Source: Vicinamibacterales bacterium (GTDB taxonomy: Bacteria; Acidobacteriota; Vicinamibacteria; Vicinamibacterales; UBA8438). From it: DNA of 64,000 nt. Both the position numbers and the translations under genes were made by a program. The DNA lies in assembly GCA_965214865.1 (NCBI GenBank), contig CBDCCN010000001.1:451747-515746 (forward strand), in the 5' to 3' direction. Below, piece by piece: positions 44,091 through 59,370 of the stretch; position 1 is the stretch's first letter; every line of letters begins with the position of its first letter. Below the pieces are notes generated by a model. The model saw only the letters and a program-made list of their open reading frames with translations, did no database searches and was not told the DNA's origin.

Positions 44091-45509
44091 ATGACGACGT
44101 CATCGCACACGATCGAACGGGTGTCGGGCCGCCGGATCTGGGATTCGCGCGGACGTCCGACCGTCGAAGCGGACGTGCGTCTCCACGGCGGCGTCATCGG
44201 GCGGGCCATCGCGCCGGCCGGGGCCTCGACCGGCAGCGGCGAGGCGGTCGATCTGCGCGACGGCGGCGCATCCTTCGGCGGCCATGACGTGACGGCGGCC
44301 GTGCGCAACGTCAACGCGGAGATCGCACAGGCGTTGCGCGGGCGGGACGTAACCGATCAGGCCGCCCTGGATCGGACCCTGGTCGACCTCGACGGCACCG
44401 GGAACCGCGGCCGGCTCGGCGCCAACGCGCTCGTCGCGGTCTCGATGGCGGCGCTCCACGCCGCCGCCGGCGCCGCGGGCCGGCCATTGTGGCGCCATCT
44501 CCTCGGCGACGGCCCCGCCCTGCTGCCGCTGCCCGAGGTCCAGATCTTCGGCGGCGGCGCCCACGCCGGGCGGCGGGTCGACGTCCAGGACTTCATGGTG
44601 CTGCCGGTCGGGGCTGCAACCTTCGCGGAGGCGCTCGACTGGACGGCGGAGGTGTATCGGGCCGCCGGCGCGCGGATGGCGAAAGCCGGACGGCTGCACG
44701 GGGTCGCCGACGAGGGCGGCTACTGGCCGGCGTTCGACACGAACGAGGAAGCGCTGGAGTTCCTGCTGCGGGCCATCGAGGACGCCGGACGCACGCCCGG
44801 TGACGACGTGGCCATCTCGCTCGACGTCGCCGCCTCGGAGTTCCACGCCGGCGGGTGCTATCGACTCGGTCTCGATCGCCGGGAACTGGACAGCGACGCG
44901 CTCGCCGAGCTGCTGATTGGCTGGCTCGACCGGTATCCGATCGCCTCGATCGAGGATCCGCTGGCCGAGGACGACGTGACGGGGATGCAGCGCTTCACGA
45001 CCGCGGTGGGCGACCGCGTGCAGATCGTCGGCGACGACTACCTGGTGACCAGCGCGGCGCGGGTCGAGCGGGCCGCCCGCGACGGCGCCTGCAACGCGCT
45101 CCTCGTCAAGCCCAACCAGGCCGGCACGGTGACCGAGACGCGGTCCGCGCTCGAGGCGGCGCGGGCCGCCGGTTTCGACACCATCGTCTCGGCCCGCTCG
45201 GGCGAGACGGAGGACGTGACCATCGCCCACCTGGCGGTCGGCTGGCGGGCCGGCCAGTTCAAGGTCGGATCGTTCGCCCGCTCGGAGCGGATGGCCAAGT
45301 GGAACGAGGTGCTGCGGATCGAGGAGGCGGCGGGTGACGCGGCCGCGTTCGCCGCGGCGGTCCGGCCAGCGGCGACGCAGGCCCGGTCTCTGGTCGGCCG
45401 ACCGCTTCGCCTGTCCCGCGTTCACGCTCGACTGGCCGCCGGCGGAGTGACAGAATCAGGGGGTCGGCGCCACCGCCGGCAACATGCACCCGATGCGACA
45501 AGAAAGTGA
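44091..45509 (+). CDS. eno: enolase-family protein (divergent enolase) with ~45-aa C-terminal extension
   Basis: ATG 44091. SRGRPTVEADV, PAGASTGSGEA, DVAASEF, IEDPLAEDD, KPNQAGTVTET and SGETEDVTIAHLAV. After ...WNEVLRIEEAAGDAA the ORF runs on to 45509, overlapping the next gene, so the true 3' end is uncertain. Confidence 0.8.
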   Translation: MTTSSHTIERVSGRRIWDSRGRPTVEADVRLHGGVIGRAIAPAGASTGSGEAVDLRDGGASFGGHDVTAAVRNVNAEIAQALRGRDVTDQAALDRTLVDLDGTGNRGRLGANALVAVSMAALHAAAGAAGRPLWRHLLGDGPALLPLPEVQIFGGGAHAGRRVDVQDFMVLPVGAATFAEALDWTAEVYRAAGARMAKAGRLHGVADEGGYWPAFDTNEEALEFLLRAIEDAGRTPGDDVAISLDVAASEFHAGGCYRLGLDRRELDSDALAELLIGWLDRYPIASIEDPLAEDDVTGMQRFTTAVGDRVQIVGDDYLVTSAARVERAARDGACNALLVKPNQAGTVTETRSALEAARAAGFDTIVSARSGETEDVTIAHLAVGWRAGQFKVGSFARSERMAKWNEVLRIEEAAGDAAAFAAAVRPAATQARSLVGRPLRLSRVHARLAAGGVTESGGRRHRRQHAPDATRK

Positions 45510-45519
45510 GGCGACAGCG

Positions 45520-46485
45520 ATGAGAGTTTCCAGCCTGACGGCGATTGGCCTGGCCGCAGCGATCGGACTCGGTGCGCCCGTGGCAGTGAACGCGCAGACC
45601 GACGACGCGGCGGGGGCGTTCGTACGGGTGGCCACCGGCTACAGCCTGACCCCGAACATCACGTACCATCGCGCGGGCGGACAGGATCTGACCCTCGACG
45701 TCTACCGGCCCCGCGCCGCGTCGGGACCGAGCCCGACGCTCATCTACATTCACGGCGGCGGCTGGACCAACGGCAGCCGGCAGGCCTCCGCGCTGACCTT
45801 CCTCCCCTACCTGGAGATGGGCTGGAGCGTGGTCAACGTCTCCTACCGGCTGGCCGACGCCGCGCACGCGCCGGCCGCGGTCGAGGACTGCCGCTGCGCC
45901 CTGCGCTGGGTCTACCGCAACGCCGGGCAGTTCAACTTCGACCTCGACCGGATCGTGGTGACCGGCAACTCCGCCGGCGGACACCTGTCGCTGACCACCG
46001 GCATGCTGCCGGCATCGGCCGGACTCGACCGCCAGTGCCCCGGCGACCGGCGCCGCCTCTGGACCACCGGCGCGACGTCGACCGCCCCGCTCGAGGTCGC
46101 GGCGATCGTCAACTGGTACGGCATCACCGACGTCTACGACCTGGCCCACCGAACGCCGGGAACCTCCGGGAACTTCACCGAGGCGTGGCTGGGGAGCCGC
46201 AGCGACCGCGACGCGGTGGCGAGGCGCGTCTCGCCGACCAACTACGTGAACGGCGACACCCCGCCGATCCTCACCATCCACGGCGACGCCGACTCGATCG
46301 TGCCCTACGACCACGCGACGCGCCTGCACGCGCTGCTCGACGAGTGGGGCGTGCCGAACCGGCTCGTCACGATCGAGGGCGGCGGGCACGGCGGGTTCAG
46401 CCCGGAGGAGAACCAGCGCATCTACGCGGCGATCCGGGCGTTCCTCGGCGAGCACGGGCTGGGGCCCGAACCGTCGAACGACTGA
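45520..46485 (+). CDS. exported alpha/beta hydrolase (HSL/carboxylesterase type)
   Basis: ATG 45520, with a signal peptide. HGGGW oxyanion motif, GNSAGG nucleophile elbow and a late HGDAD...GGGH. Confidence 0.85.
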   Translation: MRVSSLTAIGLAAAIGLGAPVAVNAQTDDAAGAFVRVATGYSLTPNITYHRAGGQDLTLDVYRPRAASGPSPTLIYIHGGGWTNGSRQASALTFLPYLEMGWSVVNVSYRLADAAHAPAAVEDCRCALRWVYRNAGQFNFDLDRIVVTGNSAGGHLSLTTGMLPASAGLDRQCPGDRRRLWTTGATSTAPLEVAAIVNWYGITDVYDLAHRTPGTSGNFTEAWLGSRSDRDAVARRVSPTNYVNGDTPPILTIHGDADSIVPYDHATRLHALLDEWGVPNRLVTIEGGGHGGFSPEENQRIYAAIRAFLGEHGLGPEPSND

Positions 46486-46661
46486 CGCCCGCCACGGGGT
46501 CTGGGTGCGCCAACCGCGGCGAACGAGCTGCTGCGCCGACGCGGCGGGCCGGAGGCCGTGGTGGGAACGATATGCGGGGCGGTCGGTCAGGAACGGCTCG
46601 GACTCGTGAACCAGGCCGCCGCCCCGCTACGCGCCACCAAGCCGTTCGGTCAGCAAGCGCA

Positions 46662-48386
46662 TCAGCCCAGCTCGGGATGCTGCAGGTGGTGGTCGGTCGC
46701 CGCCTGCCAGGCGTGCGCGAGGCGCAGGATCTCCGCCTCGCCGAACAGCTTCCCCGTGAAGCGCAGGCTGGTCGGCGAGCCCTCGAAGAAGCCGCTCGGC
46801 ATGCTGATCTCCGGGTGGCCGGTCAGGTTCGTCAGCCGCAAGTCGCTGCCGACGAACAGATCGAGGTCGCCGAGCGTCTCGTGCACCTGCTCGATGATCT
46901 GCATCCGCAGGCGGTTCGCCTGCAGGTAGGCGATGGCCGGGACGAACCGCGACGCCCGAAAGCTGTCGGGCCAGCGGCTCTCCTCCGGCGCCTCGCGCAT
47001 GCCGTCCAGCTCGGCGTTCACCGTCGGCACGTCGAATGCCGCCGCCGCCTCCGTGCCCAGAATGAAACCGATGGCGTCGGCCGGCACGTCCGGCAGGTCG
47101 AGCGGCGCCAGTCTCACCCCCAAGCCGCGCAGCGTGTCGAGGGCAGCCCGGTTGTTCGCCAGCGTCTGCCGCTCCCGCGCCGCGCGCCCCGGGCTCTGGG
47201 GATCGTCCTCGATGGCGGCCTCGTCGAAGCTCGAGCGGAGGTAACCCACCCGCAGGCCGGCGAGGTCGGCCTCCGCGTCCCAGTTGAACGGCACGTCGAG
47301 AACCGTGTTGTCCCGCCCGTCCGGTCCCCGGATGGCGTCGAACACGAGCGCGCAGTCTTCGGCCGACCGGCACATCGGTCCGATCTTGTCCATCGTCCAG
47401 CTCAGGGCCATCGCGCCAAACCGGCTCACCCGGCCGAACGTCGGACGCAGGCCGGTGACTCCGTTGCGGGTCGAGGGCGAGATGATGGATCCGCGCGTCT
47501 CGGTCCCGATCGCGAAACCGACGAGCCCCGCGGCGGTCGCCGCCCCCGAGCCGGCAGACGACCCGCTCGCCCCCTGTTCCGGGTTCCAGGGGTTCCGCGC
47601 CCGGCCGCCGAACCAGCGGTCTCCCGACGCCAGGGCCCCCATGGAGAGCTTGGCGGCGAGAATCGCCCCTGCCTCGGTCAACCGCGTGTACACCGTGGCG
47701 TCCGTGTCGATGGTCTGCCGCCGATAGGGGGACGCCCCCCAGGTCGTGCGGGTGCCGCGGACGGCGAGCAGGTCCTTCGCTCCCCACGGGATCCCGTGCA
47801 GCGGCCCGCGGTAGATGCCCGCCGCGATCTCCTCGTCGGCCTGCCGGGCCTGGCGCCGTGCGATGTCTTCCGTGTAGCTGACCACGCAGTGCAGGGTCGG
47901 GTCGTGCCGCCGCAGCCGGGACAGGTACAGCTCGGTCAGCTCGGACGGCTTCACCTGCCGGGTCTCGATCAGCTTCGCCAGGTGCGTGACGGGCAGGAAC
48001 GCCAGATCCTCGTCGGTGGACGGCATCGCCACCGCGATCTCCGCGCGCCGCATCGGACGGCGTTCGGCAGGCAGCGTCATCCCGGGCGGCGCCGGGTTGA
48101 ACACGATGGCCGGCTGCGCGGCGTTGCCGAGGTTGGCGGCGCGCAGCGTCCGGACGTCCGGCCGGCCGCCGGGTCGGTTGAGGCGCTCGGCTATACGCTC
48201 CAGATCCTCCGGGGGAAACGCCAGCCCGGCGATGCGCTGCGCCGCCGCGAGCATCTCCACCGTTACCTCGTCGGCGTCCTGCGCCACCGCCGCTAGCGCG
48301 CCGGGCATCAGGGCGGACGTGATCCCCGCCGCCGACAGGCCGGTGATGAAACGCCGCCGGTTCACCGCGAGCTTCTGTTCATCCAT
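46662..48386 (-). CDS. Tat-exported amidase (amidase-signature family)
   Basis: ATG 48386. Twin-arginine NRRRFITGL. AS signature GGSSAGSGAATAAG..FAIGTETRGSIISP. Confidence 0.85.
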   Translation of the reverse strand: MDEQKLAVNRRRFITGLSAAGITSALMPGALAAVAQDADEVTVEMLAAAQRIAGLAFPPEDLERIAERLNRPGGRPDVRTLRAANLGNAAQPAIVFNPAPPGMTLPAERRPMRRAEIAVAMPSTDEDLAFLPVTHLAKLIETRQVKPSELTELYLSRLRRHDPTLHCVVSYTEDIARRQARQADEEIAAGIYRGPLHGIPWGAKDLLAVRGTRTTWGASPYRRQTIDTDATVYTRLTEAGAILAAKLSMGALASGDRWFGGRARNPWNPEQGASGSSAGSGAATAAGLVGFAIGTETRGSIISPSTRNGVTGLRPTFGRVSRFGAMALSWTMDKIGPMCRSAEDCALVFDAIRGPDGRDNTVLDVPFNWDAEADLAGLRVGYLRSSFDEAAIEDDPQSPGRAARERQTLANNRAALDTLRGLGVRLAPLDLPDVPADAIGFILGTEAAAAFDVPTVNAELDGMREAPEESRWPDSFRASRFVPAIAYLQANRLRMQIIEQVHETLGDLDLFVGSDLRLTNLTGHPEISMPSGFFEGSPTSLRFTGKLFGEAEILRLAHAWQAATDHHLQHPELG

Positions 48387-48481
48387 GGTGCGGTCACCCT
48401 CGCCTGGACACGTTCCGCCTGGAACCCGAAGATAATCCCGTATAGGGTACATGACGAGCGGTCTTGTATCCGGGTGGGATC

Positions 48482-48718
48482 ATGCCAGTCATGCCAGTAC
48501 GATTCAACATCACGATGGACGAAATGCTCTACCGCCGGCTGAAGGATGCCTGCCCGCCGAAGGGCGTCAGTCGCTTCATCAGCGACGCCGTGCGCGCCCG
48601 CCTTCATCCCGATCAGGACGCGCTCGAAGCCGGTTACAAGGCGGCGGCTCGCGAAGCGTGGCGCACCGAGCTGGCGGACGCCTGGGAAGTCACCGAAGTC
48701 GAAGATTGGCCGCAATGA
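48482..48718 (+). CDS. ribbon-helix-helix antitoxin upstream of a MazF/PemK-like gene
   Basis: MPVMPVRFNITMDEMLYRRLKDACPPKGVSRFISDAVRARL fits an RHH pattern. The stop overlaps the ATG of the next gene (ATGA at 48715-48718). Confidence 0.65.
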   Translation: MPVMPVRFNITMDEMLYRRLKDACPPKGVSRFISDAVRARLHPDQDALEAGYKAAAREAWRTELADAWEVTEVEDWPQ

Positions 48719-48921
48719 AGGGATACCCGCGTCGCGGAGACGTCTACTGGGTATCGCTCGATCCGGTACGAGGCGCCGAGATGTCGAGTCGCTCTACCCG
48801 GGCGAGGCCATCGTGTCGGTGAAGGGCAAGCGGGCTCGAGTTCTCGGAGACCAGATTCGATCGCTCGATCGGCAAAGACTGCATGGCCGCAGCGGGCGGC
48901 GTCGACGCGTTAGTCGACTAA
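48715..48921 (+). pseudogene. mazF: MazF/PemK-family toxin relic (internal deletion plus frame changes)
   Basis: N-terminus MKGYPRRGDVYWVSLDPVRGAE. The usual ~30-35 aa core (..RP.VVVS..........VVP.TS) is missing. The family resumes in another frame as LYPGEAIVSVKGKRARVLGDQIRSLDRQRL. The end is unclear. Confidence 0.6.
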
Positions 48922-48979
48922 CTGTTGCGCGTCTTCGAGACGCTCTGGCTCTTCGCGCCGTGACGGCGCGCGGCCGAAT

Positions 48980-49300
48980 TCACCAGCCGTACTGCCCCTT
49001 CGACACCAGCGCGAACGATTCCCGGACGAGCGCCCGCAGGACGTTCATGTCGATGTCCTCGAGCTTTTTGATGTAGAGGCACGACTTCCCGGTCGTGCAG
49101 CGGCCGAGCTTCTTCATCAACGCATCGTGCCGCTGGAAGCCGGTCATGATGTAGACGGTCAGGCTCTGCTTGCGCGGCGACACCCCGGTCTCCATCCAGT
49201 CGCCTTCGCGCCCGGTCGGGTACTTGTAGTGGTAGCTGCCGAACCCGATGATGCTGTCACCCCACATCGCCGACGGTTCACCAGTGACGTCGGCCATCAA
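48980..49300 (-). CDS. DUF1801 (YdhG-like) domain protein; family homology continues upstream without a canonical start
   Basis: MWGDSIIGFGSYHYKYPTGREGDWMETGVSPRKQSLTVYIMTGF...TGKSCLYIKKLEDIDMNVL. Upstream in frame (to ~49400) VEAFLDRIENAKRREDCRSVVEL is also family-like, but no ATG/GTG/TTG precedes it after the in-frame stop. Confidence 0.7.
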   Translation of the reverse strand: MMADVTGEPSAMWGDSIIGFGSYHYKYPTGREGDWMETGVSPRKQSLTVYIMTGFQRHDALMKKLGRCTTGKSCLYIKKLEDIDMNVLRALVRESFALVSKGQYGW

Positions 49301-49447
49301 CTCGACGACGCTACGGCAATCCTCCCGTCGCTTGGCGTTCTCGATGCGGTCGAGGAAGGCCTCGACGAGCGCGTCCGCAACCAGCTCGTCGAACTCATCC
49401 AGCCGTGAGGCGCGAACCGCGGATGACTCCGACCATCCGCCTATCGC

Positions 49448-49984
49448 TCACAGCCCTGTCTCGCGGTCCTCGAACACCCGTTTCAACGCCTCGCGCGCCG
49501 CCCGATGAACCGGCACCCCCGGCAACACCTCGTCCTTGATCCGGATCGCCTCACCCTCGTTGCCGACTCCCAATTCCCTGCACAGCACCGCGATATCATC
49601 CCGGTCCTTGAACCTGCCCGCCACAAGCTTCATGGCCAGCAAGTGCTGCGCCGAGGCACCCGTCACGGTCAGATATTGCGACTGGTACAACGTCCCCGCC
49701 CGCTCGTCGGCCCCCTTCGGCAACACGACCGCCGCCGGCTCGTTGAACCACCCTTCCTCGAAGCCGCGGCGCCTGCCCACCGCTCGTGCCGCCTCCGTGA
49801 GCTTTTCGCGGCCGCTGTCAACACGCACGTCGAGATCCACCGTTCTCCGATTGCGGTCGAAAGCCACGCTCATAGCGGCGCCGCCGAACAGGTAGACATG
49901 CGCCCGCGCGCCTCGCATTCCCAGTTCCGCCGACAACTCCTCGAACAGCTCGAGAACCTGCTTACGGCCAAGGGGTCCAGCCAA
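49448..49984 (-). CDS. minimal nucleotidyltransferase (MNT/AbiEii/DUF6036-like)
   Basis: NTase motif VYLFGGAAMSVAFDRNRRTVDLDV, later HLLAMKLVAGRFKDRDDI. Start uncertain: TTG 49984 preceded by GGGGAGGGG, or GTG 50032. Overlaps the upstream gene's 3' end. Confidence 0.65.
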   Translation of the reverse strand: MAGPLGRKQVLELFEELSAELGMRGARAHVYLFGGAAMSVAFDRNRRTVDLDVRVDSGREKLTEAARAVGRRRGFEEGWFNEPAAVVLPKGADERAGTLYQSQYLTVTGASAQHLLAMKLVAGRFKDRDDIAVLCRELGVGNEGEAIRIKDEVLPGVPVHRAAREALKRVFEDRETGL

Positions 49985-50567
49985 ATCGCTCCCCTCCCCG
50001 CGCGTCGAGATCCCGGGGGTCCGGAATCGCACCGTGCCGCAAGAACGCGGCGGGCGCGAACATCACCGAGTACAGTCGCGCCCAGGGCGTATCAGCCAGC
50101 ACCCACGTGCTGTCCAGGAACCGCTCGCGCTCGTCCACCCATCCCGGCCGCTCGTGACCGTGTAGCCAGGCCACGTGCTCCACCATCGCCGCTACGAGCG
50201 CGTCCCACTTCGTCCCGGTCAGCGGCACCCGCGCCCCAAGCGCCTCGTGCTGCTCCTCCGCGCTCCGCGCGTGGAAACTCCGCGGGAGCTGACACACGAT
50301 CCAGCGGGCGGTATCTTCCTCCGACCACCCCTCCTCGACGCCCCGCAGAAAATCCGCCAGCAGCAGCGGCGGCAGATCCGCCCCTCCGACCCGCTCAGCC
50401 GCCGCGTGTGCCACTTTCTCGGACTCCGGCAAGTTCCCGTCCGACTTGTCCGCGGCGCGTACAGACCATCCGCCGCGCCTCCTGACCCCCATCACCGCCG
50501 CCGTCCTCGCCCGCGCCTGCTCGAACTCCCGCCGCGCAGCCCGCGCGGATCCCGGATGCCACACCAA
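49962..50567 (-). CDS. hypothetical protein, upstream partner of the minimal nucleotidyltransferase
   Basis: 201-aa ORF (TTG/GTG start) with non-shadow composition in its C-terminal 150 aa (WSEEDTARWIVCQLPRSF..., KWDALVAAMVEHVAWLHGHERPGWVDERERFLDSTW). No family recognised. Starts 39 nt after the RHH gene stop. Confidence 0.5.
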   Translation of the reverse strand: MVWHPGSARAARREFEQARARTAAVMGVRRRGGWSVRAADKSDGNLPESEKVAHAAAERVGGADLPPLLLADFLRGVEEGWSEEDTARWIVCQLPRSFHARSAEEQHEALGARVPLTGTKWDALVAAMVEHVAWLHGHERPGWVDERERFLDSTWVLADTPWARLYSVMFAPAAFLRHGAIPDPRDLDARGGERFGWTPWP

Positions 50568-50606
50568 ATTATGTCACCACCATCGGGTCTCCACTTTCTC
50601 CATTTT

Positions 50607-50807
50607 CTACATCGTGACATTCCCGCGCTTCGGCTCCGCGGGGGCGATCTCCGGCTTGCTCTCGCGGGCGAACAGCATGTTGAACGCCTCCCCGCAGATC
50701 GCATGGAGCGTCGCGCCCCGGTCGAGCGCCAGCCGCTTCAGCTCGTCCCGGACAATCGCCGGTACGTGCACCGTCAGCGACACGGTGCCGACTCGACCTG
50801 GCGGCAC
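50607..50807 (-). CDS. ribbon-helix-helix (CopG/ParG-like) small DNA-binding protein
   Basis: 66 aa with a GTG start. VSLTVHVPAIVRDELKRLALDRGATLHAICGEAFNMLFAR fits a beta-strand plus two-helix RHH pattern. Confidence 0.6.
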   Translation of the reverse strand: MPPGRVGTVSLTVHVPAIVRDELKRLALDRGATLHAICGEAFNMLFARESKPEIAPAEPKRGNVTM

Positions 50808-50944
50808 AGCCGCCGGCGAACGGCGATCTCCGAAGGTTGATCACGGCGCCCGGCACACCATCGCACGGACGCTTCCGGTGATCCCGCTGCTCGATCAGCT
50901 TCGCGTTTTCCTTCGAGGCGTTCGATGCGCACGTCCCGATGATC

Positions 50945-51021
50945 CCCCCAGCGGCGTTTCTCGGTGAGACGGCGCTCCTCTTCGGCCGTGGCCTGGCCTC
51001 GCCGAGGGCCGATGCGAATCC
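50945..51021 (-). repeat. 77-bp perfect copy of an internal AlbA_2-gene segment (copy 1, intergenic)
   Basis: cccccagcggcgtttctcggtgagacggcgctcctcttcggccgtggcctggcctcgccgagggccgatgcgaatcc is identical to 52855..52931. It encodes IRIGPRRGQATAEEERRLTEKRRWG on the minus strand. The flanks are unrelated. Confidence 0.95.
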
Positions 51022-51119
51022 GCCTCTTCAAGGAATAAGGGAGGATTGATCTGCGTGGAGACGCTGCGGGAAACGGGGAGCCCCGGTGGCCGCCGCGCGC
51101 CGGCCGGGTCCGGCTGGCC

Positions 51120-52106
51120 TCAACACCCGCTATCGAGACGCCTGAGCAACTCCCGTGCGAGGTTGCAGAAGTCCGTGTAGCAGTCACGGACCGCCTGTTG
51201 ATGCGCACCGATGGCGCCGTGGGCCGGCTTCAGCAGGAACATGGGGCGGTTCGCCTCCTGCGCCATCGGCATGAGCGAGCGGTAGTCCTTCAGGTGCGCC
51301 AGACAGTTCGCGTCCTGGCCTTCCGGCACGGATGGCGGACCGCTTTCCGTTACGGCTTTCGCGTATTCCGACGGGATCCTGTCGATCCACCGGCCGTAGG
51401 CCTGGACGGGTCTGGACAGTCGGGTGGAGTGCCGCATGATGACGTAGCCGAGCGGCTTCATGTTGCCCGCCGGCAATCGAATGTCCAACTCCGCCGGCTT
51501 CCTTGCGGCGCGCTCCCGCCAGGCGTTCCGCCAATCCCTGAGAATCGGCCCCACGTTTCTCAATCCCTGCAAGGAAAACAGGTCGGGAGCCAGGGGAATG
51601 ACGACACGGTCGCCGGCGACCAGGGCGGCGCGGTTGATCGCGCCGAGATTCGGACCGACGTCCAGCAGCGCCAGGTCCGCTCCGAACTGCTCTCCGGCCC
51701 GTGAGATCAACCGCGCGAACGCCGTCGTGACGCGGAACGCCCGCTTGTCCCCGTCCAGACACTTCGGCCATTGCGTGGAGAGCTCGTCTTCCCTTCTGGA
51801 GAGCCCGAGATCGCCCATCAGCAACCCGATCTTCTCGCCGATTTCCTCGACGTGCGGAGACTCGACGATATCCCCGGTGCCCTCGAACAGCGGGGCGACG
51901 CCCTCGTCAATCGTGCCCTGGTTCCCATTTCTCCACAGACGTTCCAACTCTGTCTCGTCAAGAAACATCCCCGTCAGGTTGGCCTGGGGATCCAGGTCCG
52001 CGGCGATGACGCGCCGGCCGCGCTCCCCGAGCATCCAGGCCAGGTGATAGACGAGCGACGTCTTGCCCACGCCCCCCTTGTTGTTGAAGAAGGCGACGGT
52101 CGTCAT
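51120..52106 (-). CDS. ParA/Soj-like deviant Walker-A ATPase (long, 328 aa)
   Basis: MTTVAFFNNKGGVGKTSLVYHLA, DLDPQANLT and LLDVGPNLG. The ATG overlaps the stop of the upstream AlbA_2 gene (ATGA 52103-52106). Confidence 0.85.
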   Translation of the reverse strand: MTTVAFFNNKGGVGKTSLVYHLAWMLGERGRRVIAADLDPQANLTGMFLDETELERLWRNGNQGTIDEGVAPLFEGTGDIVESPHVEEIGEKIGLLMGDLGLSRREDELSTQWPKCLDGDKRAFRVTTAFARLISRAGEQFGADLALLDVGPNLGAINRAALVAGDRVVIPLAPDLFSLQGLRNVGPILRDWRNAWRERAARKPAELDIRLPAGNMKPLGYVIMRHSTRLSRPVQAYGRWIDRIPSEYAKAVTESGPPSVPEGQDANCLAHLKDYRSLMPMAQEANRPMFLLKPAHGAIGAHQQAVRDCYTDFCNLARELLRRLDSGC

Positions 52107-53292
52107 GGCCGCCTCCGAACGGTGACGAGGACGAACACGTCCTGAACGTCGAACTCCGGCGGTGGATTACCGTTTTCCGCCAACGTCCTGCGCGCCGTTT
52201 CTATGCCGATTCCGAAGCGCTGCATGAAGCCCATGTTCTTCATCGCTTCCGCGATGGTGGGGTTGCGGTAGGAGGTCGCTCCCTGTCCGAAATTGTCGCG
52301 TCCGACTTCCCCGAACGCGGTGCCCGGGCTCAGGATTTCCACACGGTCGACGAGCCAGGAGATCCGCACGGGAGTGTTTGAACTCTCGTAGTTTCTGTGA
52401 ATCGCCGCGTTGCGGAGGAGTTCGCGGAGGGCCTCGTAGGGATAGCTTCGTTCCTCGACGTGCCGTTCTCCGCGCGTATCGAGCGCATGGGGAATGTTCA
52501 ACCTCAGCAAACGGTCCGCTTCCCGCAACTGCTCCGGCAACGGTCCGGAAAGTTCAGCATGGTCGAGTATCTCATCCGTCACGGCGGTCCCGCCGTAGCG
52601 GACGAACTGCAGATATGCTCCGGGAAACCAGTACCGCGGATCCCTGCCCAGCATGAGGATCGCCGTGACCGTGGGCGCACCGTTCCGCGCCACGAGACGC
52701 AGCGCCTGCAGTTGCTCCTCCCGATTACGGCGGTTCTCCGTCAGGACTTCCGGAGAAACCGCACAGGGCAGGTAGTCGTTCTCTCGAACGCCCGCATGTC
52801 CAGGTCGGCCTTCACCGTCGCCCCGGCGACGCCCTGCATGTCGTAGGGAACGTTCCCCCAGCGGCGTTTCTCGGTGAGACGGCGCTCCTCTTCGGCCGTG
52901 GCCTGGCCTCGCCGAGGGCCGATGCGAATCCAGCACCGGCCGTCCGCCTTTAGCGGCGGATTGTCCGAGGGCTCGACCTGGACTACCGCGACGTCGCAGT
53001 TGCGCAGCCGCTTCCTGGCGACCTCCATGACGGGGAAAGGCAGGATCTTCCCGTCCGTCCGCAGCCCGCCGAGCGTCCGGAGCAAGCCGTCGTCGATGGC
53101 CGAGCCGGCACAGCTTCCGTCGTCTCCCAATCCGATGAAGAGAAGTCCCGGTGCTCCGTTCCCCGGCAGATCGTTGGCGAACGCGCATATCGCCTCCCGG
53201 AACTTGTCGAGATCCCGCACGGACGTGGTGAATTCCACACCGTCGCTCTCGCCGCTCTCGATTCGGTCGAGCAGTTCTTCGTCGCCCAGCAT
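52103..53292 (-). pseudogene. AlbA_2 (Schlafen-like) + HATPase_c_4 protein, paralog 2, one frame disruption (or assembly indel)
   Basis: ATG 53292 after GGAAGGAAG. ESDGVEFTTSVRDLDKFREAICAFANDLPGNGAPGLLFIGLGDDG. Frame A ends ...DLDMRAFER. Frame B continues NDYLPCAVSPEVLTENRR...LRELLRNAAIHRNY... to 52103. The shift is in gagaga at ~52779-52786. Confidence 0.8.
52855..52931 (-). repeat. 77-bp perfect repeat, copy 2 (inside the AlbA_2 paralog 2 coding sequence)
   Basis: Identical to 50945..51021. The spacing between copies is 1,910 bp. Confidence 0.95.
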
Positions 53293-53566
53293 GCCTCTTC
53301 CTTCCGGTTTCCGATGCGAAGTCTTCGTCCGATTATGACGCCGGATGTGCGCGGCGAGTGATCGGCGCCCCCCTGCGGGGCCGGGAGGCACCTCGGACAG
53401 GTTCCGCGTCGCACCGGGAACGGCGGCCGGATTCACCAGCCGTACCGACCCTTCGACACCCGTTCGCAGGACTCCCGCGCGGGCTCGCGGCAAGGTGGGA
53501 CGAGCGAACGACGGGCGTGAGAGGGGCCGCGGTTCCGCCGGCGGGCGGAGACCGCGGCCCCGAGGA

Positions 53567-56500
53567 CTACCAGCTCAACTGCGTCGACAGCCGCAGCATC
53601 CGGCCGAGCACGTAGCGGCTCGGCTGCGCATAGACGCCCGACGTGTAGTTGTAGGACGCCTCGGCGTACCACACGTCGGTGTTCGTCACGTTGTAGATCT
53701 CGAGCTGCGGGCGGAACTCCATGCCGCCGGCGTTGCCGATCCACTGGAAGCTGAAGTTCAGCATGTTCGTCCGCGGCAACTGGTGGATCGTGCCGGCCGG
53801 CGCGACCGGCACCGTGATCGACGACTGCACCATGTCGGGTATGACCGGCATGCCCGGCTCGCAGGGCGCGCCGTTGATGGTGGCGCCGTGACACCGCGGC
53901 GCGCGGCCGTGGGACCCGCCGTCGGCGGTGTACACCGTGTTCCGGTTGATGAGCCAGTTGACCGGCAGCAGCTCGTCCACGCGCTGGATGTCCCCCGTCA
54001 ACCGGCCCGTCACACTGTTCAGCACCAGGCTGAACTGCATGTTCGCAGGCAGCGGGAAGTAGCCGCCGAGCTTGAAGTCGTTCTTGAAGTCGACCCCGTC
54101 GTAGGCGACCTGCGCGCCGCCCGGCAGGCTGACGTTGTACCGGTTCATGTCGTTGCGGTCGCAGAAGCGGTCCCCGTTCGGGTCGCCCCGGTTGTCGCAC
54201 TCGCTCGTGATCTTGCGCTGCGTGGTCAGGCTGGAGATGAGCTGTCCCCCGCCCGGCAGCCGGGCGTTGAGCGCCAACTCGATCCCGTTGTAGACGCCGG
54301 TGTGGCCGATCGGGTTGGTGACGAGGTTGTCCACCTGTCCCACCAGGTCCGTGCCCGCCAGGTCGTAGACGTTGAAGACCTCGCCGTTGAGCGGGTTCAC
54401 CACCTCGACCGCGCGGAACGACCCCGGCGCCTCCCAGTGCCGGTTGTAGATGAACATCCCCTCGTAGCCGGTGTCGGTGAAGAGGATGTCGTGGAACGAC
54501 CGGCGGTACCAGCCGACGCTGAGGGAGACGTTGCGCGTGAGCTCCCGCTCCACGCTGACCGACGTCTCGATGTTCCACTCGCGCACCAGATCCGGGTCGA
54601 TGTCGTCGAGGCGGCGCGTGCCGAAGTTCGGGGGCAGCCGGGCGAAGTCGAGCTCGTGGTCCTGCACGATGCTGTCGCCGTTCGGATCGCTCCACGGAAG
54701 GGCGAACGTCGTCAGCGCCATCGGATTCACCCGGTTCGGCAACGCCGTGGTGGTCGGGGTCAGGTACTTCCCGGTGCTGAACTTCAGCGCGGTGCGGGCG
54801 TCGCCGAAGACGTCCCACGCGACGCCGATGCGCGGCGACCACTCGGGCCCCCAGCAGGGCACGCAGGTCACCTCGGCGAAGTCGCGTCCCCTGGCGAAGC
54901 GGCCGTCCGGGACGCGCTGCGGGGGCACCGACCCGTTGAGCCAGTCGGCGCGCAGGCCGCCGGTGATCGTCACCCGGTCGACGGTCCAGGCGTCCTGGAT
55001 GAACCAGCCGGTCTCCTTGACCGAGTTCAACCGGATGAACGGGTAGTTGCCTGCCAGCACCTCGTAGGCGCGCCCGTCGCGGATGTTCATCCGGCTGATG
55101 TCGCCGTTGTTGAAGCGGTGCTGCTCGGCTGTGCCCCAGGCGTAGGAGAAACCGGTCTTGAAGTTGTGCGACCCCGTGACGTAGGACACCGAGCTCATCA
55201 CCCGCTCGCCCGGCAGGTTCCAGGAGAAGTCCTCCACCGAATCGAACTGGATGTTCCGGTCGAGGTCGCGCTTGTGCACGAACTGCAGCCAGTTGTCCGA
55301 CCAGCGCGGGAAGACGGTGTTCGGTTGCGGGTCGCTGCAGCAGTCGGCGACGCCGGAGCTCCCGTAACCCGCCTCGATCAGCAGCCGGCTGCTGATCGTC
55401 GAGGTCCACTTCGCCTGTCCCTGCCAGTAGGGCGCGTGGTGCCAGCCCTGGCCCTTGTTCTGGTAGTTGCGGGCGGTCTCCGGGTCGGGACCGCGCTGGT
55501 CGTCGAGCAGGAATGCGGATTGAATCCAGGCAGACTCCGGGGTGGCGCGCCACGTGCCGCGGTAGCGGGCCTCGTGCGGCAGGTCGATGAACGGTCCGCG
55601 CCGCTTGTTCAGCCGATCGAGGGTGGCGCTGAACTTGTTGTTCGGATTCGCCTGCCAGGTGAGCCGGGTGACGCTGGAGATGATGTCCTCCTCGTTGAAG
55701 AACTGGCTCCGGTCGTCGAACAGCCAGCCCGGCTCCGGCGTCCACGCGCCCCAGTAGCGGACCGACTCGTGGAACCAGAGCTGGTCCTGGACGATCGGCC
55801 CGCCGATCGACCCGGAGTAGTCGAACAGCTTGTTGAAGTCGGCCGCCTCGGTCGTGCCCGCCTGCCGCAGCCGGTCGGAGTAGTTGTTGGCGATCCAACC
55901 GCCCGCGGTGTGGCCGACGTAGCCCTGGCCGCTGAAGGTGTTGCCGCCTTCCTTCGGGATGATGTTCATGACGACGCCGCCCGCCTGCATCTCGGCGTTG
56001 CCGCCGCCGCCGCCCGCCTGCACCGCCATCTCCTGCGTGGCCAGGTCCTGGTTGTACATGACCGGGACGCCTTCGAGGGCCAGCAGGTCGAGGGCCATGC
56101 CCTCCTGCATCACGGTGGTGTGCTTGGCGTTGGCGCCGCGCGCCTCGAGCTGCAGGTCGTTGACGTAGCGCGAGCCGCCGACGTCTACCCCCGCCATCGA
56201 CACGCCGGGCACCATCATCGCCTGGGTCCAGGGGCTGCCGGTGTTGATGACGTTGTCGAGCACCTCGCGGGAGAGCACCTGCACGCGGGCCGCCTGCTGC
56301 ACGTCGACCACCGGGGCCGCGCCGGAGACGGTCACCGTCTCCTCGAGGGCGCCGACCGACAGTTGCACGTCCAGCTCCGCCGTGAACTCCGACGGCAGGT
56401 CGAAGTTCTCCTGCACCACCGTGCCGAAGCCGGCCAGCGAGAAGGTCAGGCTGTAGATGCCCGGCCGCAGGTTGACGATGCTGTAGCGCCCCTGGCCGTC

Positions 56501-56689
56501 GGTCACGGCGACGCGGCTGCCCTCGATGAGCGCCGGACTCGAAGCCTCCACCGTGACACCCGGAAGGATGCCGCCGGTGTTGTCGGTGACCTGGCCGCCG
56601 ATCGCGCTCTGGGCCGCGGCCGACGCCGGCCACAGCGCCAATCCCGCGACGAGGAGCCAGGCGTACTGGGTCCTACGGACGCACTGCAC
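53567..56689 (-). CDS. TonB-dependent receptor with N-terminal CarboxypepD_reg domain
   Basis: 1,040 aa. GTG 56689 after GGAGGTGA, with a signal peptide. GQVTDNTGGILPGVTVEA...GRYSIVNLRPGIYSLTFSLAGF, then ETVTVSG and a long beta-barrel ending ...LRLSTQLSW. Confidence 0.9.
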   Translation of the reverse strand: MQCVRRTQYAWLLVAGLALWPASAAAQSAIGGQVTDNTGGILPGVTVEASSPALIEGSRVAVTDGQGRYSIVNLRPGIYSLTFSLAGFGTVVQENFDLPSEFTAELDVQLSVGALEETVTVSGAAPVVDVQQAARVQVLSREVLDNVINTGSPWTQAMMVPGVSMAGVDVGGSRYVNDLQLEARGANAKHTTVMQEGMALDLLALEGVPVMYNQDLATQEMAVQAGGGGGNAEMQAGGVVMNIIPKEGGNTFSGQGYVGHTAGGWIANNYSDRLRQAGTTEAADFNKLFDYSGSIGGPIVQDQLWFHESVRYWGAWTPEPGWLFDDRSQFFNEEDIISSVTRLTWQANPNNKFSATLDRLNKRRGPFIDLPHEARYRGTWRATPESAWIQSAFLLDDQRGPDPETARNYQNKGQGWHHAPYWQGQAKWTSTISSRLLIEAGYGSSGVADCCSDPQPNTVFPRWSDNWLQFVHKRDLDRNIQFDSVEDFSWNLPGERVMSSVSYVTGSHNFKTGFSYAWGTAEQHRFNNGDISRMNIRDGRAYEVLAGNYPFIRLNSVKETGWFIQDAWTVDRVTITGGLRADWLNGSVPPQRVPDGRFARGRDFAEVTCVPCWGPEWSPRIGVAWDVFGDARTALKFSTGKYLTPTTTALPNRVNPMALTTFALPWSDPNGDSIVQDHELDFARLPPNFGTRRLDDIDPDLVREWNIETSVSVERELTRNVSLSVGWYRRSFHDILFTDTGYEGMFIYNRHWEAPGSFRAVEVVNPLNGEVFNVYDLAGTDLVGQVDNLVTNPIGHTGVYNGIELALNARLPGGGQLISSLTTQRKITSECDNRGDPNGDRFCDRNDMNRYNVSLPGGAQVAYDGVDFKNDFKLGGYFPLPANMQFSLVLNSVTGRLTGDIQRVDELLPVNWLINRNTVYTADGGSHGRAPRCHGATINGAPCEPGMPVIPDMVQSSITVPVAPAGTIHQLPRTNMLNFSFQWIGNAGGMEFRPQLEIYNVTNTDVWYAEASYNYTSGVYAQPSRYVLGRMLRLSTQLSW

Positions 56690-56987
56690 GATTCACCTCC
56701 GTTCCGTGAGTGTTTCCGACGAACGAGGCGCGCCGGAGATATAGCGGAGACCTATGGAGGGACCAGCTTCGGCAGCGGAAGGGAGACACGACGCGGCGCA
56801 GGCCGGTCTGCATCGATGAGGCCGCGGACCATCGCCGCGGAGAAGTTCGCCCCAGCATCGCTTCCGCTCTCCGGGTGAACGCCAACCACCGACGACGCGA
56901 ACTCGACCGACGCGTGACCCGGACCGGAGCCGCGGCGCGCGGGGGCGCGGGCGGTGGCCGGGCAGCCTCCTCACTATACTCCTGACA

Positions 56988-57023
56988 GTCCCCGGCGTCC
57001 CCGGCGTCCCCGGCGTCCCCGGC
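56988..57023. repeat. 4 x 9-bp perfect tandem repeat (gtccccggc) in the divergent promoter region
   Basis: Read directly: units at 56988, 56997, 57006 and 57015. They lie between the receptor gene start (56689) and the 57172 gene start, next to a TATAGT-like hexamer on the minus strand (rev-comp of 56973-56978). Confidence 0.9.
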
Positions 57024-57171
57024 GCATGCACGCACGGACCGTTCACGAACGTGTCGGGACGCCCGCCCTTGACGTTCGTCCTCCGCCGGGGCATGCTCGG
57101 CACGAACGGCTGCCGCCGGCCGTCGGCCGTCACCGCCGGGCGCCGGCCGGACCGCAACACGGAGGACCGCC

Positions 57172-59370
57172 ATGAGCAAGCGTTTCGCAGGAGCGTCGGT
57201 CGTCGCCGTGCTCGTCGCCGCGGCGCTGGTCACCCTGTCCGCGTCCGGCCGCGCCGCGGGCGAGGTGCAGGCCGAAGACGCGGACATCAGCGGCGTGGTC
57301 ACCAGCGCGAACGGCCCCGAGGAGGGCGTCTGGGTCATCGCCGAGACTACGTCCCTGCCGACGAAGTTCGTCAAGAGCGCGGTGACGGGCGACGGCGGCC
57401 GGTACCTGATTCCCGACCTGCCGGACGCGACCTACGACGTGTGGGTGCGCGGCTACGGGCTGCTCGACTCGGAGCCGGTGACCGCCGCGCCGGGCGACAC
57501 GGTGGACATCGAGGCGACGGCGGCCGCGACGCCGGCCGAGGCGGCCCGGATCTACCCCGCCAACTACTGGTACTCGCTCATCCGCCCGCCGGCCCCGGCC
57601 GAGTTCCCCGGCACCGGGGAGGACGGCAACGGCATCGCCGCCAACCTGCGGCACCAGGACCAGTGGGTCGACATCCAGAAGCAGGGCTGCATGCTGTGCC
57701 ACCAGCTCGGCAGCCGCATCATCCGCGAGATCGACAACCTCGACCAGTTCGACTCCAGTCTCGAGGCCTGGGACCACCGCGTCCGCATGGGCCAGCGCGG
57801 CGGGCAGATGACCAACGTCATGAACCGCTTCGGCCGCGGGCGCGGCCTGCAGATGTTCGCCGACTGGAGCGACCGGATCGCCGCCGGGGCGGTGCCGCCG
57901 GCCCCGCCCCGGCCCCGGGGTGTCGAGCGCAACGTCGTTGTCTCGATGTGGGAGTGGGGCACCGAGATCGACTACATCCACGACGAGATCACGACCGACA
58001 AGCGCGATCCGACCGTCAACGCCGGCGGCCCGGTCTACGGCGTGAACATCTCCAACGACGCGCTCACGATCCTCGACCCGGCGACCCACACCGCCACCAG
58101 CCTCGACGTCCCGCTGCGCGTCGACCCCGACACCGTGCCGGGGATGATCGCGCTCTCGATGCCGGCGCCGTCGCGGTTCTTCGGGGACGAGCTGATCTGG
58201 AACGACCCGGCCAACCCGCACAACCCGATGATGGACCGGAAGGGTCGGGTGTGGATGACCTCGGCGATCCGCAACCGCGCCAACCCCGACTACTGCAGGG
58301 AGGGTTCGGACCATCCCTACGCGCAGTACTTCCCGCTGGCCGGCGGCTTCCGGTCGGCGGTGTTCTACGAGCCGGACCAGGAGCAGTTCGTGCTGGTCGA
58401 CACCTGCTTCGGGACCCACCACCTGCAGTTCGCCGAGGACGAGAACGACACCCTCTACTTCAGTGGCGGCGGGCAGGTCATCGGCTGGATCGACACGCGG
58501 CTCTACGACGAGACAGGCAACGAGCAGCTCGCCCAGGGCTGGTGCCCGACCGTGCTCGACACCAACGGCGACGGCGTGATCACGAAGCCGTGGAACGAGC
58601 CGGCGCAGCGCGGGCGGGAGGTCGGGCACGACCCCGCCCTCGACACGCGCGTGTCCATCGGCAGCTACGGCGTCATCGCCGACCCGACCGACGAGAAGGC
58701 GGTCTGGATCAGCTCGAACCGGTTCCCGGGCCGGCTCGCCCGGCTGCACGTCGGCGACGACCCGCCGGCGAGCTGCGTGACCGAGATGTACGAGGTGCCG
58801 TCGGTCCTCGATCCGAACGTGCCGCCGGAGAAGCGCGGGTTCGGCTCGCGCGGGATCGACATCGACCGCGACGGCGTCGTCTGGACGGCGCTGTCCGGAT
58901 CGAGCCACCTCGCCAGCTTCGACCGGCGCCAGTGCGCCGTGCACAACGGTCCCAGCACGGCCGAAGGGCGGCACTGCGTCGAAGGCTGGACCCTCTACCC
59001 CACGCCCGGCCCCACGATTCCCGGCACCGAACCGCCGGTGCGGGCCGACTACCACTACTACAACTGGGTGGACCAGTGGAACACCCTCGGCCTGGGCAAG
59101 GACGTGCCGATCGCCACCGGATCGAACTCGGATTCGCTGCTGGCCCTGGATCCGGACACCGGGGAGTGGATCGTGCTGCGGGTGCCCTATCCGCAGGGCT
59201 TCTTCACCCGCGGACTCGACGGCCGCATCGACGATCCGGACGCCGGCTGGAAGGGGCGCGGCGTGTGGGCCACCTACGGCGCGGCGGTCACCTGGCACAT
59301 CGAGGGCGGCGTCGGCGTCAAGCCGGGGATGCTGAAGTTCCAGGTGCGTCCGCATCCGCTCGCCAACTGA
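57172..59370 (+). CDS. exported CarboxypepD_reg-domain protein with a single CxxCH heme-binding motif
   Basis: ATG 57172 after GGAGGA, with a signal peptide. ISGVVTSANGPEEGVWV...GRYLIPDLPDATYDVWVRGYG. CMLCH within WVDIQKQGCMLCHQLG. 732 aa. No named function recalled. Confidence 0.8.
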   Translation: MSKRFAGASVVAVLVAAALVTLSASGRAAGEVQAEDADISGVVTSANGPEEGVWVIAETTSLPTKFVKSAVTGDGGRYLIPDLPDATYDVWVRGYGLLDSEPVTAAPGDTVDIEATAAATPAEAARIYPANYWYSLIRPPAPAEFPGTGEDGNGIAANLRHQDQWVDIQKQGCMLCHQLGSRIIREIDNLDQFDSSLEAWDHRVRMGQRGGQMTNVMNRFGRGRGLQMFADWSDRIAAGAVPPAPPRPRGVERNVVVSMWEWGTEIDYIHDEITTDKRDPTVNAGGPVYGVNISNDALTILDPATHTATSLDVPLRVDPDTVPGMIALSMPAPSRFFGDELIWNDPANPHNPMMDRKGRVWMTSAIRNRANPDYCREGSDHPYAQYFPLAGGFRSAVFYEPDQEQFVLVDTCFGTHHLQFAEDENDTLYFSGGGQVIGWIDTRLYDETGNEQLAQGWCPTVLDTNGDGVITKPWNEPAQRGREVGHDPALDTRVSIGSYGVIADPTDEKAVWISSNRFPGRLARLHVGDDPPASCVTEMYEVPSVLDPNVPPEKRGFGSRGIDIDRDGVVWTALSGSSHLASFDRRQCAVHNGPSTAEGRHCVEGWTLYPTPGPTIPGTEPPVRADYHYYNWVDQWNTLGLGKDVPIATGSNSDSLLALDPDTGEWIVLRVPYPQGFFTRGLDGRIDDPDAGWKGRGVWATYGAAVTWHIEGGVGVKPGMLKFQVRPHPLAN

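Follow-up and report, generated by a model that had tools for sequence, protein, structure and literature searches.

A segment of defence and toxin-antitoxin genes beside a TonB-dependent receptor gene in a Vicinamibacterales genome is probably a long-standing variable spot of at least four unrelated units

Recently, ParA-effector systems have been predicted, by computation only, with Schlafen-type and Sirtuin proteins listed among their effectors (Li, Burroughs and Aravind 2026, doi 10.64898/2026.10.19.760177). In that proposal, ParA first captures incoming DNA, and the effector kills the cell should this fail. Experiments have shown prokaryotic Schlafens to be phage-activated defence tRNases (Nat Microbiol 2026, PMC13056530). 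In the same article, Schlafen-HisKinase is their commonest architecture (34%), the seven constructs tested included HisKinase fusions, and RorSlfn5, the member characterised in detail, is a single-gene system with an Ig-like sensor. Here we compare with these systems, and with AbiE/MenAT, mazEF and type Ib partition cassettes, a 4.8-kb segment from a Vicinamibacterales bacterium in which a prokaryotic Schlafen (AlbA_2/HATPase_c_4) gene, a ParA-like gene, a nucleotidyltransferase gene and remnants of toxin-antitoxin (TA) genes lie together. The segment belongs to a window of 64,000 nt (C1:451747-515746) of a 5.3-Mb genome in 4 contigs with 70% GC. Positions given below without a contig or locus name are positions in this window.

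A preliminary description of the window, made from the sequence alone, correctly placed the segment between an amidase gene and a TonB-dependent receptor (TBDR) gene. Most of the genes listed there (DUF1801, nucleotidyltransferase, ribbon-helix-helix (RHH), ParA-like and AlbA_2/HATPase_c_4) were confirmed by Pfam, but the product of the 84-aa open reading frame (ORF) called an RHH antitoxin has no Pfam match, and none in NCBIfam or PADLOC. The segment was regarded as a single accessory island with one co-directional gene array. Our results point elsewhere. Probably, the region downstream of the core TBDR and DUF1801 genes has long been variable, and defence genes, TA genes and mobile DNA pile up and erode there. 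In place of one array we find four or more units that are unrelated to one another, with debris between them. The evidence consists of observed gene identities, orthology, breakpoints and copy numbers, and of a layout common to an independent assembly.

We compared the 20 kb that surround the amidase orthologue of each of 16 relatives, and then the receptor, DUF1801 and ParA loci; the same-genus relatives are Vicinamibacterales metagenome-assembled genomes (MAGs). The AlbA_2/HATPase_c_4 and ParA-like genes were found directly after DUF1801 in 7 of 14 same-genus relatives. The ancestral order, TBDR, DUF1801, AlbA_2/HATPase_c_4 and long ParA-like gene, is seen in G001, G006, G007, G008, G010 and G011, and in G003 the part from DUF1801 to ParA stands on a contig of its own. 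The order is also found in a metagenome contig with a ParA 90% identical to that of the window. The AlbA_2 and ParA-like orthologues have 84-87% protein identity, which is the level of the flanking core genes, and the pair is inherited. DUF1801 belongs to the core genome: 13 of the 14 same-genus genomes have exactly one copy, invariably just after the TBDR gene, and the GC content of DUF1801 at third codon positions (GC3), 0.92, is host-like. At the other end of the segment, an antitoxin-mazF pair beside the amidase gene is common to the window, G006 and G008.

Downstream of ParA, the relatives carry a variable stretch of 6-8 kb with pyrroloquinoline quinone (PQQ) dehydrogenases, a beta-lactamase-family gene, VapBC, adenosine-deaminase pieces, insertion sequence (IS) elements and a TIR gene. 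Their AlbA_2-ParA modules are not followed by an RHH gene or by either of the two genes that we call U and N, of which N encodes the nucleotidyltransferase. Comparison with related genomes had been suggested as a check on presence and boundaries of the island. The content does vary among relatives, but only 49376-51050 (~1.7 kb) has no counterpart at this locus in any of them. This lineage-specific DNA holds the U-N cassette, a 5'-truncated RHH gene, an IS66-like scrap and a 77-nt copy of AlbA_2 sequence, and is a mosaic of four origins (Table 1). The host genome is among the smallest in the genus (up to 11.3 Mb), and its locus lacks the PQQ dehydrogenase, beta-lactamase-family and VapBC genes of the relatives' 6-8 kb. 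Both observations are consistent with a deletion-prone, shrinking lineage.

Table 1. Features of the segment and its flanking genes, in window positions
Feature	Position	Strand	Basis
Amidase gene, left border of segment	46662-48452	-	
Small RHH-like antitoxin gene, mazE-type position, intact	48482..48718	+	orthologues upstream of mazF
mazF pseudogene	48715..48930	+	alignment to intact 113-aa MazF genes of G006, G008
DUF1801, displaced core gene	48980..49375 (ORF 48980-49300)	-	Pfam DUF1801, E 1.4e-11
U-N cassette, ~0.96 kb, intact, mobile nucleotide-homology unit	49417..50378	-	matches in unrelated contexts
N, DUF6036 nucleotidyltransferase, AbiEii/MenT/ANT(2'')-like fold	49448..50032	-	Pfam DUF6036
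U, uncharacterised ~140-150-aa partner of N	49962..50492 (ORF 49962-50567)	-	homologue lengths
ParG-like RHH gene, 3' two-thirds	50575..50822 (ORF 50607-50807, 66 aa)	-	Pfam Antitox_RHH PF20605, E 4e-11
IS66-like transposase scrap, ~80 nt, N-terminal coding region	50868..50946	-	89-92% identical to four genomic copies
77-nt copy of AlbA_2 codons ~121-146	50945..51021	-	repeat search; 100% identical to 52855-52931, 1910-nt period
Long ParA-like ATPase, 328 aa, intact	51120..52106	-	Pfam AAA_31, E 2e-24; CbiA, E 2e-12
Prokaryotic Schlafen (AlbA_2) + HATPase_c_4 (GHKL/histidine-kinase-like) gene	52103..53292	-	Pfam matches in two frames
Decayed DUF1801 3'-end relic, ~57 nt	53433-53489	-	repeat search; aligns with relatives' DUF1801 3' ends
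TonB-dependent receptor gene, right border of segment	53567-56689	-	

If a single genomic island, or one integrated plasmid or integrative and conjugative element (ICE), had entered between the amidase and receptor genes and were now decaying, an atypical base composition would be expected. The GC content is 0.659 versus 0.701 in the genome, and the GC3 of the segment's genes is 0.75-0.89 versus 0.91-0.96 in the flanking genes. The lower third-position GC that had been noticed by eye around parA and AlbA_2 was thus borne out by computation. An island would also suit the defence- and addiction-type content, which had been rightly recognised (the remains of mazEF, the cassette with the nucleotidyltransferase gene, and the Schlafen/ParA pair), the direct repeat 48970-49036/53423-53489 (67 nt) that brackets most of the segment, and the RHH scrap, which stems from an element with tyrosine recombinases. 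However, AlbA_2 and ParA-like, DUF1801 and mazEF all occur at this locus in several same-genus genomes (7/14 and 13/14 relatives for the first two, G006 and G008 for the third), with divergence like that of the core flanks. The lineage-specific DNA amounts to the 1.7-kb mosaic only, and the bracketing repeat is a decayed core-gene relic, not an att site. There are no tRNA genes in the segment, no integrase ORF in its ORF list or by Pfam, and no att-like boundaries around it, the sole flanking repeat being the relic. The absence of integrase and tRNA had been reported before, but the absence of transposase reported with it did not stand, given the IS66-like scrap. Rfam, promoter and terminator scans of the segment gave nothing notable. 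We therefore regard the single island as very unlikely; it appears largely refuted by synteny. A plasmid-like or integrative element did supply the RHH piece, but not the whole segment.

The displacement of DUF1801 needs separate consideration. Orthologues align with the window gene at 86-89% nucleotide identity, starting only at 49375, about codon 10 of the 140-aa orthologue. The window gene lacks its first ~9 codons, start codon, ribosome-binding site and promoter, in agreement with the earlier observation that family homology extends upstream of any usable start. A relic of a DUF1801 3' end, which like the 77-nt repeat was absent from the preliminary description, lies between the TBDR terminator and AlbA_2, which is the ancestral place of DUF1801. 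Its identity to the various DUF1801 3' ends is 73-78% throughout, compared with 87-92% among the intact copies. Because it is more divergent from all of them than the intact genes are among themselves, the relic is old. No second DUF1801 copy was found in any relative examined. The possibility that the 67-nt repeat is the att site of an element targeting the 3' end of DUF1801 was considered and rejected, since the upstream copy is a relic equally distant from all DUF1801 genes, the order of relic and then whole gene is the reverse of the outcome of 3'-end integration, and relatives have no second copy. Movement of DUF1801 would require an old duplication of its 3' end at the least, a later 5' loss of the upstream copy, and a junction at codon ~10 with U-N. 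Models of tandem duplication plus deletion account for the 77-nt repeat, not for the old relic. We suppose that the same rearrangements displaced the gene and removed its start.

The first of the four units would be an inherited ParA-effector module, in which an AlbA_2 RNase-GHKL protein is translationally coupled to a ParA-like ATPase. The ParA-like protein has a deviant Walker A motif (KGGVGKT, residues 10-16) and matches PDB entry 3pg5 over its full length (E 9e-26). The stop of the AlbA_2 gene overlaps the ParA start by 4 nt. An AlbA_2/HATPase_c_4 gene precedes the ParA-like gene in all eight genus paralogues checked and in all three distant homologues from other MAGs, and these three keep the 4-nt overlap. 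The AlbA_2 frameshift that had been noted in the window was confirmed as a +2 (GA) insertion in a GAGA context at 52784-52785 when compared with four intact 395-aa orthologues. However, it is missing from a second assembly (locus L137, described below), where AlbA_2 is intact with 395 aa and the unbroken pair occupies L137 4817-6987. Because it is absent from this independent, 99.8%-identical assembly, the frameshift is a strain-level polymorphism or a consensus/assembly error. In G006 the ParA gene (G006:C1:4713972-4714937; L015 6585-7574) contains an in-frame TAG, and in G011 the AlbA_2 gene (L118 4594-5768) is frameshifted. Repeated independent decay of the pair in the genus suggests that it is dispensable. 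The host genome also contains a second, heavily degraded module of this type at C4:1674569-1675187, in which the N-terminal 138 aa of ParA are 58% identical and interrupted by TAG, and a 37-aa scrap of HATPase_c_4 is left.

Remote ParA-like relatives (~30% identical, full-length) are present on Vibrio, Salmonella and Spirosoma plasmids, where a translationally coupled SIR2 gene follows (L122 4001-5856; L123 4001-5919; L124 4001-5889). The Vibrio SIR2 protein, the sole one scanned, matches ThsA, LmuA and Dsr2 models, and the Salmonella ParA-like and SIR2 pair has a DNA methyltransferase gene upstream. Such exchange of effectors, Schlafen versus SIR2, is typical of immune systems. In two unrelated MAGs (L125 316-7975; L129 1-7558) a ResIII/DEAD/YagJ helicase gene lies downstream of the AlbA_2/HATPase_c_4 and ParA-like pair. 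Upstream of it are an N6_N4 methyltransferase gene in L125, giving a type III restriction-modification-like layout, and a HATPase_c_3 gene in L129. A literature search on COG2865 yielded little. The pair matches the predicted ParA-effector immune systems, for which immunity is itself a prediction. All biochemical functions and the order of events that we infer in this work are to be taken in the conditional. Following the published prediction, the ParA-like protein would bind invading DNA, the Schlafen effector would then cleave RNA (tRNA), and the infected cell would be stopped. The pair offers natural on and off alleles for ParA-effector immunity, frameshifted here and intact in the sister strain, together with several paralogues per genome and repeated independent inactivation.

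The second unit is what remains of mazEF. The ORF list begins the antitoxin gene at TTG 48464, and ATG 48482 is the likely start. In G006 and G008 its orthologues (82-87% amino acid identity) immediately precede an intact mazF, which they overlap by 4 nt (ATGA), and in the window the antitoxin ORF also overlaps the mazF remnant by 4 nt. The mazF genes of G006 and G008 encode intact 113-aa proteins, and that of G006 matches PemK_toxin (E 9e-25). No PemK/MazF domain was found by Pfam in any frame of the window. Against the intact genes, the internal deletion of mazF that had been suspected turned out to be exactly 88 nt, after 48782 (blastn breakpoints 48782|48783); it removes the protein's core and causes a frameshift. 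There is in addition a 5-nt deletion, and the 3' end is lost, with homology stopping near 48900. The antitoxin next to the dead mazF is an orphan; the same antitoxin gene was called in L137. With the damage to mazF, DUF1801 and RHH, the partial decay described before holds.

The third unit, the U-N cassette, is intact and moves horizontally; N would be a nucleotidyltransferase toxin and U its neutraliser or trigger sensor. The cassette matches a metagenome contig (L136) with 92% identity and a locus at 1.64 Mb on contig C1 of G002 with 90.5%, both in unrelated contexts, and five other Vicinamibacterales MAG loci with 81%. Among 80 loci of Vicinamibacterales, Bryobacterales, Holophagales, Proteobacteria and Chloroflexi MAGs, 71 have N after U, the two genes overlapping. 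There are 1-8 U-N copies per genome in the genus, the nearest copies stand at other loci, and the host genome has three. One of its further copies lies at C4:1319243-1320167 (identity with the window copy: 57% for U, 39% for N); the other, at C3:92229-92971, is ~40% and 43% identical and looks fragmented. The MAGs of the U-N loci (L029-L108) bear the bin names COS, SB06xx, IRC, RHO and Plut, which may denote sponge- and coral-associated metagenomes. If so, the U-N family may be enriched in animal-associated symbionts.

N scores 25.2 bits with Pfam DUF6036 (cut-off 23.6) and 17.2 bits with AbiEii, under the AbiEii cut-off of 22.5. In the alignment, the catalytic GG...DxD and K...D..D residues are intact, and the two DxD aspartates lie in a VDLDV motif. 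Its AlphaFold2 (AF2) model has a pLDDT of 91, and the nearest PDB folds by Foldseek are ANT(2'')-Ia (probability 1.0, TM 0.53), MenT1 (0.95, 0.41), JHP933 and MenT4; a sequence search of the PDB gave no match. The start of N is uncertain, GTG 50032 or TTG 49984, and either overlaps U. A 1-nt (G) indel at 49456 between the assemblies alters the last codons and stop of N (window 49448-49460). In the window N stops at TGA 49448-49450, and the truncated DUF1801 reading frame comes next, in the same frame. For U, the gene of 201 aa listed before had been called unknown, and U has indeed no Pfam family, nor any NCBIfam or PADLOC match. Its size has to be revised, though: the ORF from 50567 is over-long, the conserved part starts near 50378, homologues have ~140 aa, and the real protein has ~140-150 aa. 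The U family comprises 1105 clusters at 50% identity. The AF2 model of U is helical (pLDDT 88) and found no fold match in PDB or BFVD by Foldseek, and longer proteins with a C-terminal U domain gave no Pfam match either. Natural U-N fusion proteins exist (P0108, P0063).

A literature search found no papers on DUF6036. We tentatively suggest that U-N is an undescribed family of nucleotidyltransferase-based TA or sensor-effector modules, a reading that we hold to be possible rather than probable. If so, the helical ~140-aa partner would control a MenT/AbiEii-like DUF6036 enzyme, and the fused form may parallel fused TA phage sensors. The cassette is compact, widespread and apparently uncharacterised, with a partner fold that is predicted confidently but unmatched, and it is the sole moderately new item in the segment.

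The fourth unit consists of scraps: the 3' part of a ParG-like RHH gene, the IS66-like piece and the 77-nt AlbA_2 piece. The 66-aa RHH of the preliminary description is an Antitox_RHH protein as proposed, but is itself 5'-truncated, which had been overlooked when the damaged genes were listed. Full-length homologues have 97-105 aa (~102) with a conserved N-terminal tail, and the window copy lacks the first ~31 codons (conserved N-terminal ~36 residues). These homologues show 85-95% identity; their genes overlap the stop codon of a gene for a ParA of 213-232 aa and stand next to Phage_integrase (tyrosine recombinase) genes, in elements that also carry Tn3 scraps and AbiTii. Nucleotide homology is confined to 50575-50822, the small parA partner is missing, and no RHH homologue was found in 150 genomes of the order. 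Judged by its homologues, the scrap is a piece of a partition gene from a foreign integrative or plasmid-like element. The four genomic copies of the IS66-like scrap (C4:2953541, C4:2997011, C4:3020712 and C3:5707) are all degenerate; the longest matches zf-IS66 with E 1.6e-4, which falls short of the gathering score. On C4, three copies are grouped within 70 kb, near another ParA homologue (C4:2998916-2999776), and this cluster may be a second mobile-element graveyard. The 77-nt repeat is best read as the stump of a cut-off 1910-bp tandem duplication of the AlbA_2 3' part, ParA and 98 nt, perhaps cut off by the IS.

These scraps also bear on whether AlbA_2, ParA-like, RHH, U and N could form one cooperating multi-gene defence operon. 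The five genes are all on the minus strand in an order that is the same in two assemblies, and ParA followed by RHH resembles a type Ib partition pair. The 328-aa ParA-like protein and the 66-aa RHH were, however, rejected as a partition pair, since the RHH homologues pair elsewhere with a different, small ParA. None of the 80 U-N loci has an RHH gene beside it. Moreover, an IS scrap and a gene fragment separate the truncated RHH from ParA, the AlbA_2-ParA modules of relatives lack RHH, U and N downstream, and U-N is found alone in unrelated contexts. We consider a single operon highly improbable.

The independent assembly mentioned above is GCA_964347755.1, in which a 31-kb contig (L137) is 99.79% identical to window 45119-58106 (13 kb). 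It has the same gene order, mazF deletions and IS and RHH scraps. Both copies of the 77-nt repeat are present there and differ by 1 nt, and on this ground we rejected the repeat as a k-mer artefact. Because the independent assembly shares it, the layout of the segment is genuine. There is also a third contig on record with an identical ParA protein. Between the two assemblies there are 22 single-nucleotide polymorphisms, 15 of them inside 48464-53500 (binomial p = 0.005), and this concentration fits relaxed constraint. A 2-nt (AG) indel between them lies at 56754/56755, ~65 nt upstream of the receptor gene start. That the perfect 77-nt repeat, the duplicated DUF1801 end and the frameshift are MAG assembly artefacts is thus extremely improbable, even though the genome is MAG-like with its 4 contigs, the relatives are MAGs, 77 nt is a common de Bruijn k-mer size and the GA indel is absent from the second assembly, since the second assembly repeats the layout and an artefact could still explain no more than two differences, the 2-nt GA indel and the 1-nt one at 49456.

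Several points weigh against the variable-spot interpretation or against parts of it. The compositional deviation of the segment is modest given the spread of GC3 over the genome (median 0.883, 10th percentile 0.775), for its genes fall between the 6th and 54th percentile of 2824 long ORFs. PADLOC, which had been proposed as a check on the products, called no system: with PADLOC and NCBIfam only weak P-loop, AbiEii and pAgo-associated matches were obtained, and no module had a system-level match. The window AlbA_2 protein carries the N-terminal motif ESDGVEFT, and in it, its orthologues and the distant ParA-linked members the Schlafen motif reads E-x4-E-x-T (ESDxVEFT), which departs from the published E-x4-(E/D)-x-K, while some AlbA_2 paralogues retain ESDRVERK. 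Given this change of K to T, RNase activity of the AlbA_2 protein is not assured. The U-N fusions would suit a two-domain enzyme no less than a TA pair or a fused sensor-toxin. Finally, the relocation of DUF1801 needs at least one old duplication that is absent from every relative, and no single parsimonious history accounts for it. Even with these points, we still favour an ordinary decaying defence/TA hotspot for the whole segment. As such it is of little importance in itself, and serves as a worked example of hotspot erosion beside core genes in an uncultured Vicinamibacterales lineage, with two useful by-products, the Schlafen-HisKinase and ParA-like pair and the U-N cassette.

How do these units compare with the described systems? 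The mazEF remnant resembles PemK/MazF type II TA pairs in its small upstream antitoxin gene, which in G006 and G008 overlaps PemK_toxin by 4 nt, and in both genomes the pair adjoins the amidase gene. It differs in that the window toxin gene is destroyed and the antitoxin, which matches no Pfam model, is left alone. Similar to type Ib partition cassettes (small ParA and ParG-like RHH), the 66-aa ORF is a PF20605 RHH whose homologues, in elements that carry tyrosine recombinases, overlap a small ParA. Unlike them, the window has lost the small ParA and the RHH N-terminus, and its neighbouring 328-aa ParA-like gene is unrelated.

U-N is like AbiE/MenAT in that the second of two overlapping genes encodes the nucleotidyltransferase, that N shows the signatures hGG...DxD and K...R..D..D and a model nearest ANT(2'')-Ia, MenT1, JHP933 and MenT4, and that there are multiple copies per genome, which move between loci. 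In contrast to AbiE/MenAT, N belongs to DUF6036 and does not reach the AbiEii cut-off of Pfam, U is neither an AbiEi-type winged helix-turn-helix protein nor a known MenA and has no Pfam family or structural match, and natural U-N fusions occur.

Prokaryotic Schlafen defence proteins (PMC13056530) share with the window protein a Schlafen (AlbA_2) nuclease domain fused to a HisKinase-like domain. The window protein differs in its coupling to a ParA-like ATPase and in the missing K of Ex4(E/D)xK. From the predicted ParA-effector systems the pair differs in that the effector gene comes before ParA, the window Schlafen has T for the catalytic-motif K and is frameshifted in this assembly, and restriction-type genes flank the pair in two other MAGs (methyltransferase upstream in L125; helicase downstream). 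It agrees with them in having a ParA-clade ATPase with a deviant Walker A motif, operonic with AlbA_2 and HATPase_c_4, in a pairing kept in paralogues and distant genomes, and its remote ParA-like relatives pair with a Sirtuin, as that paper lists.

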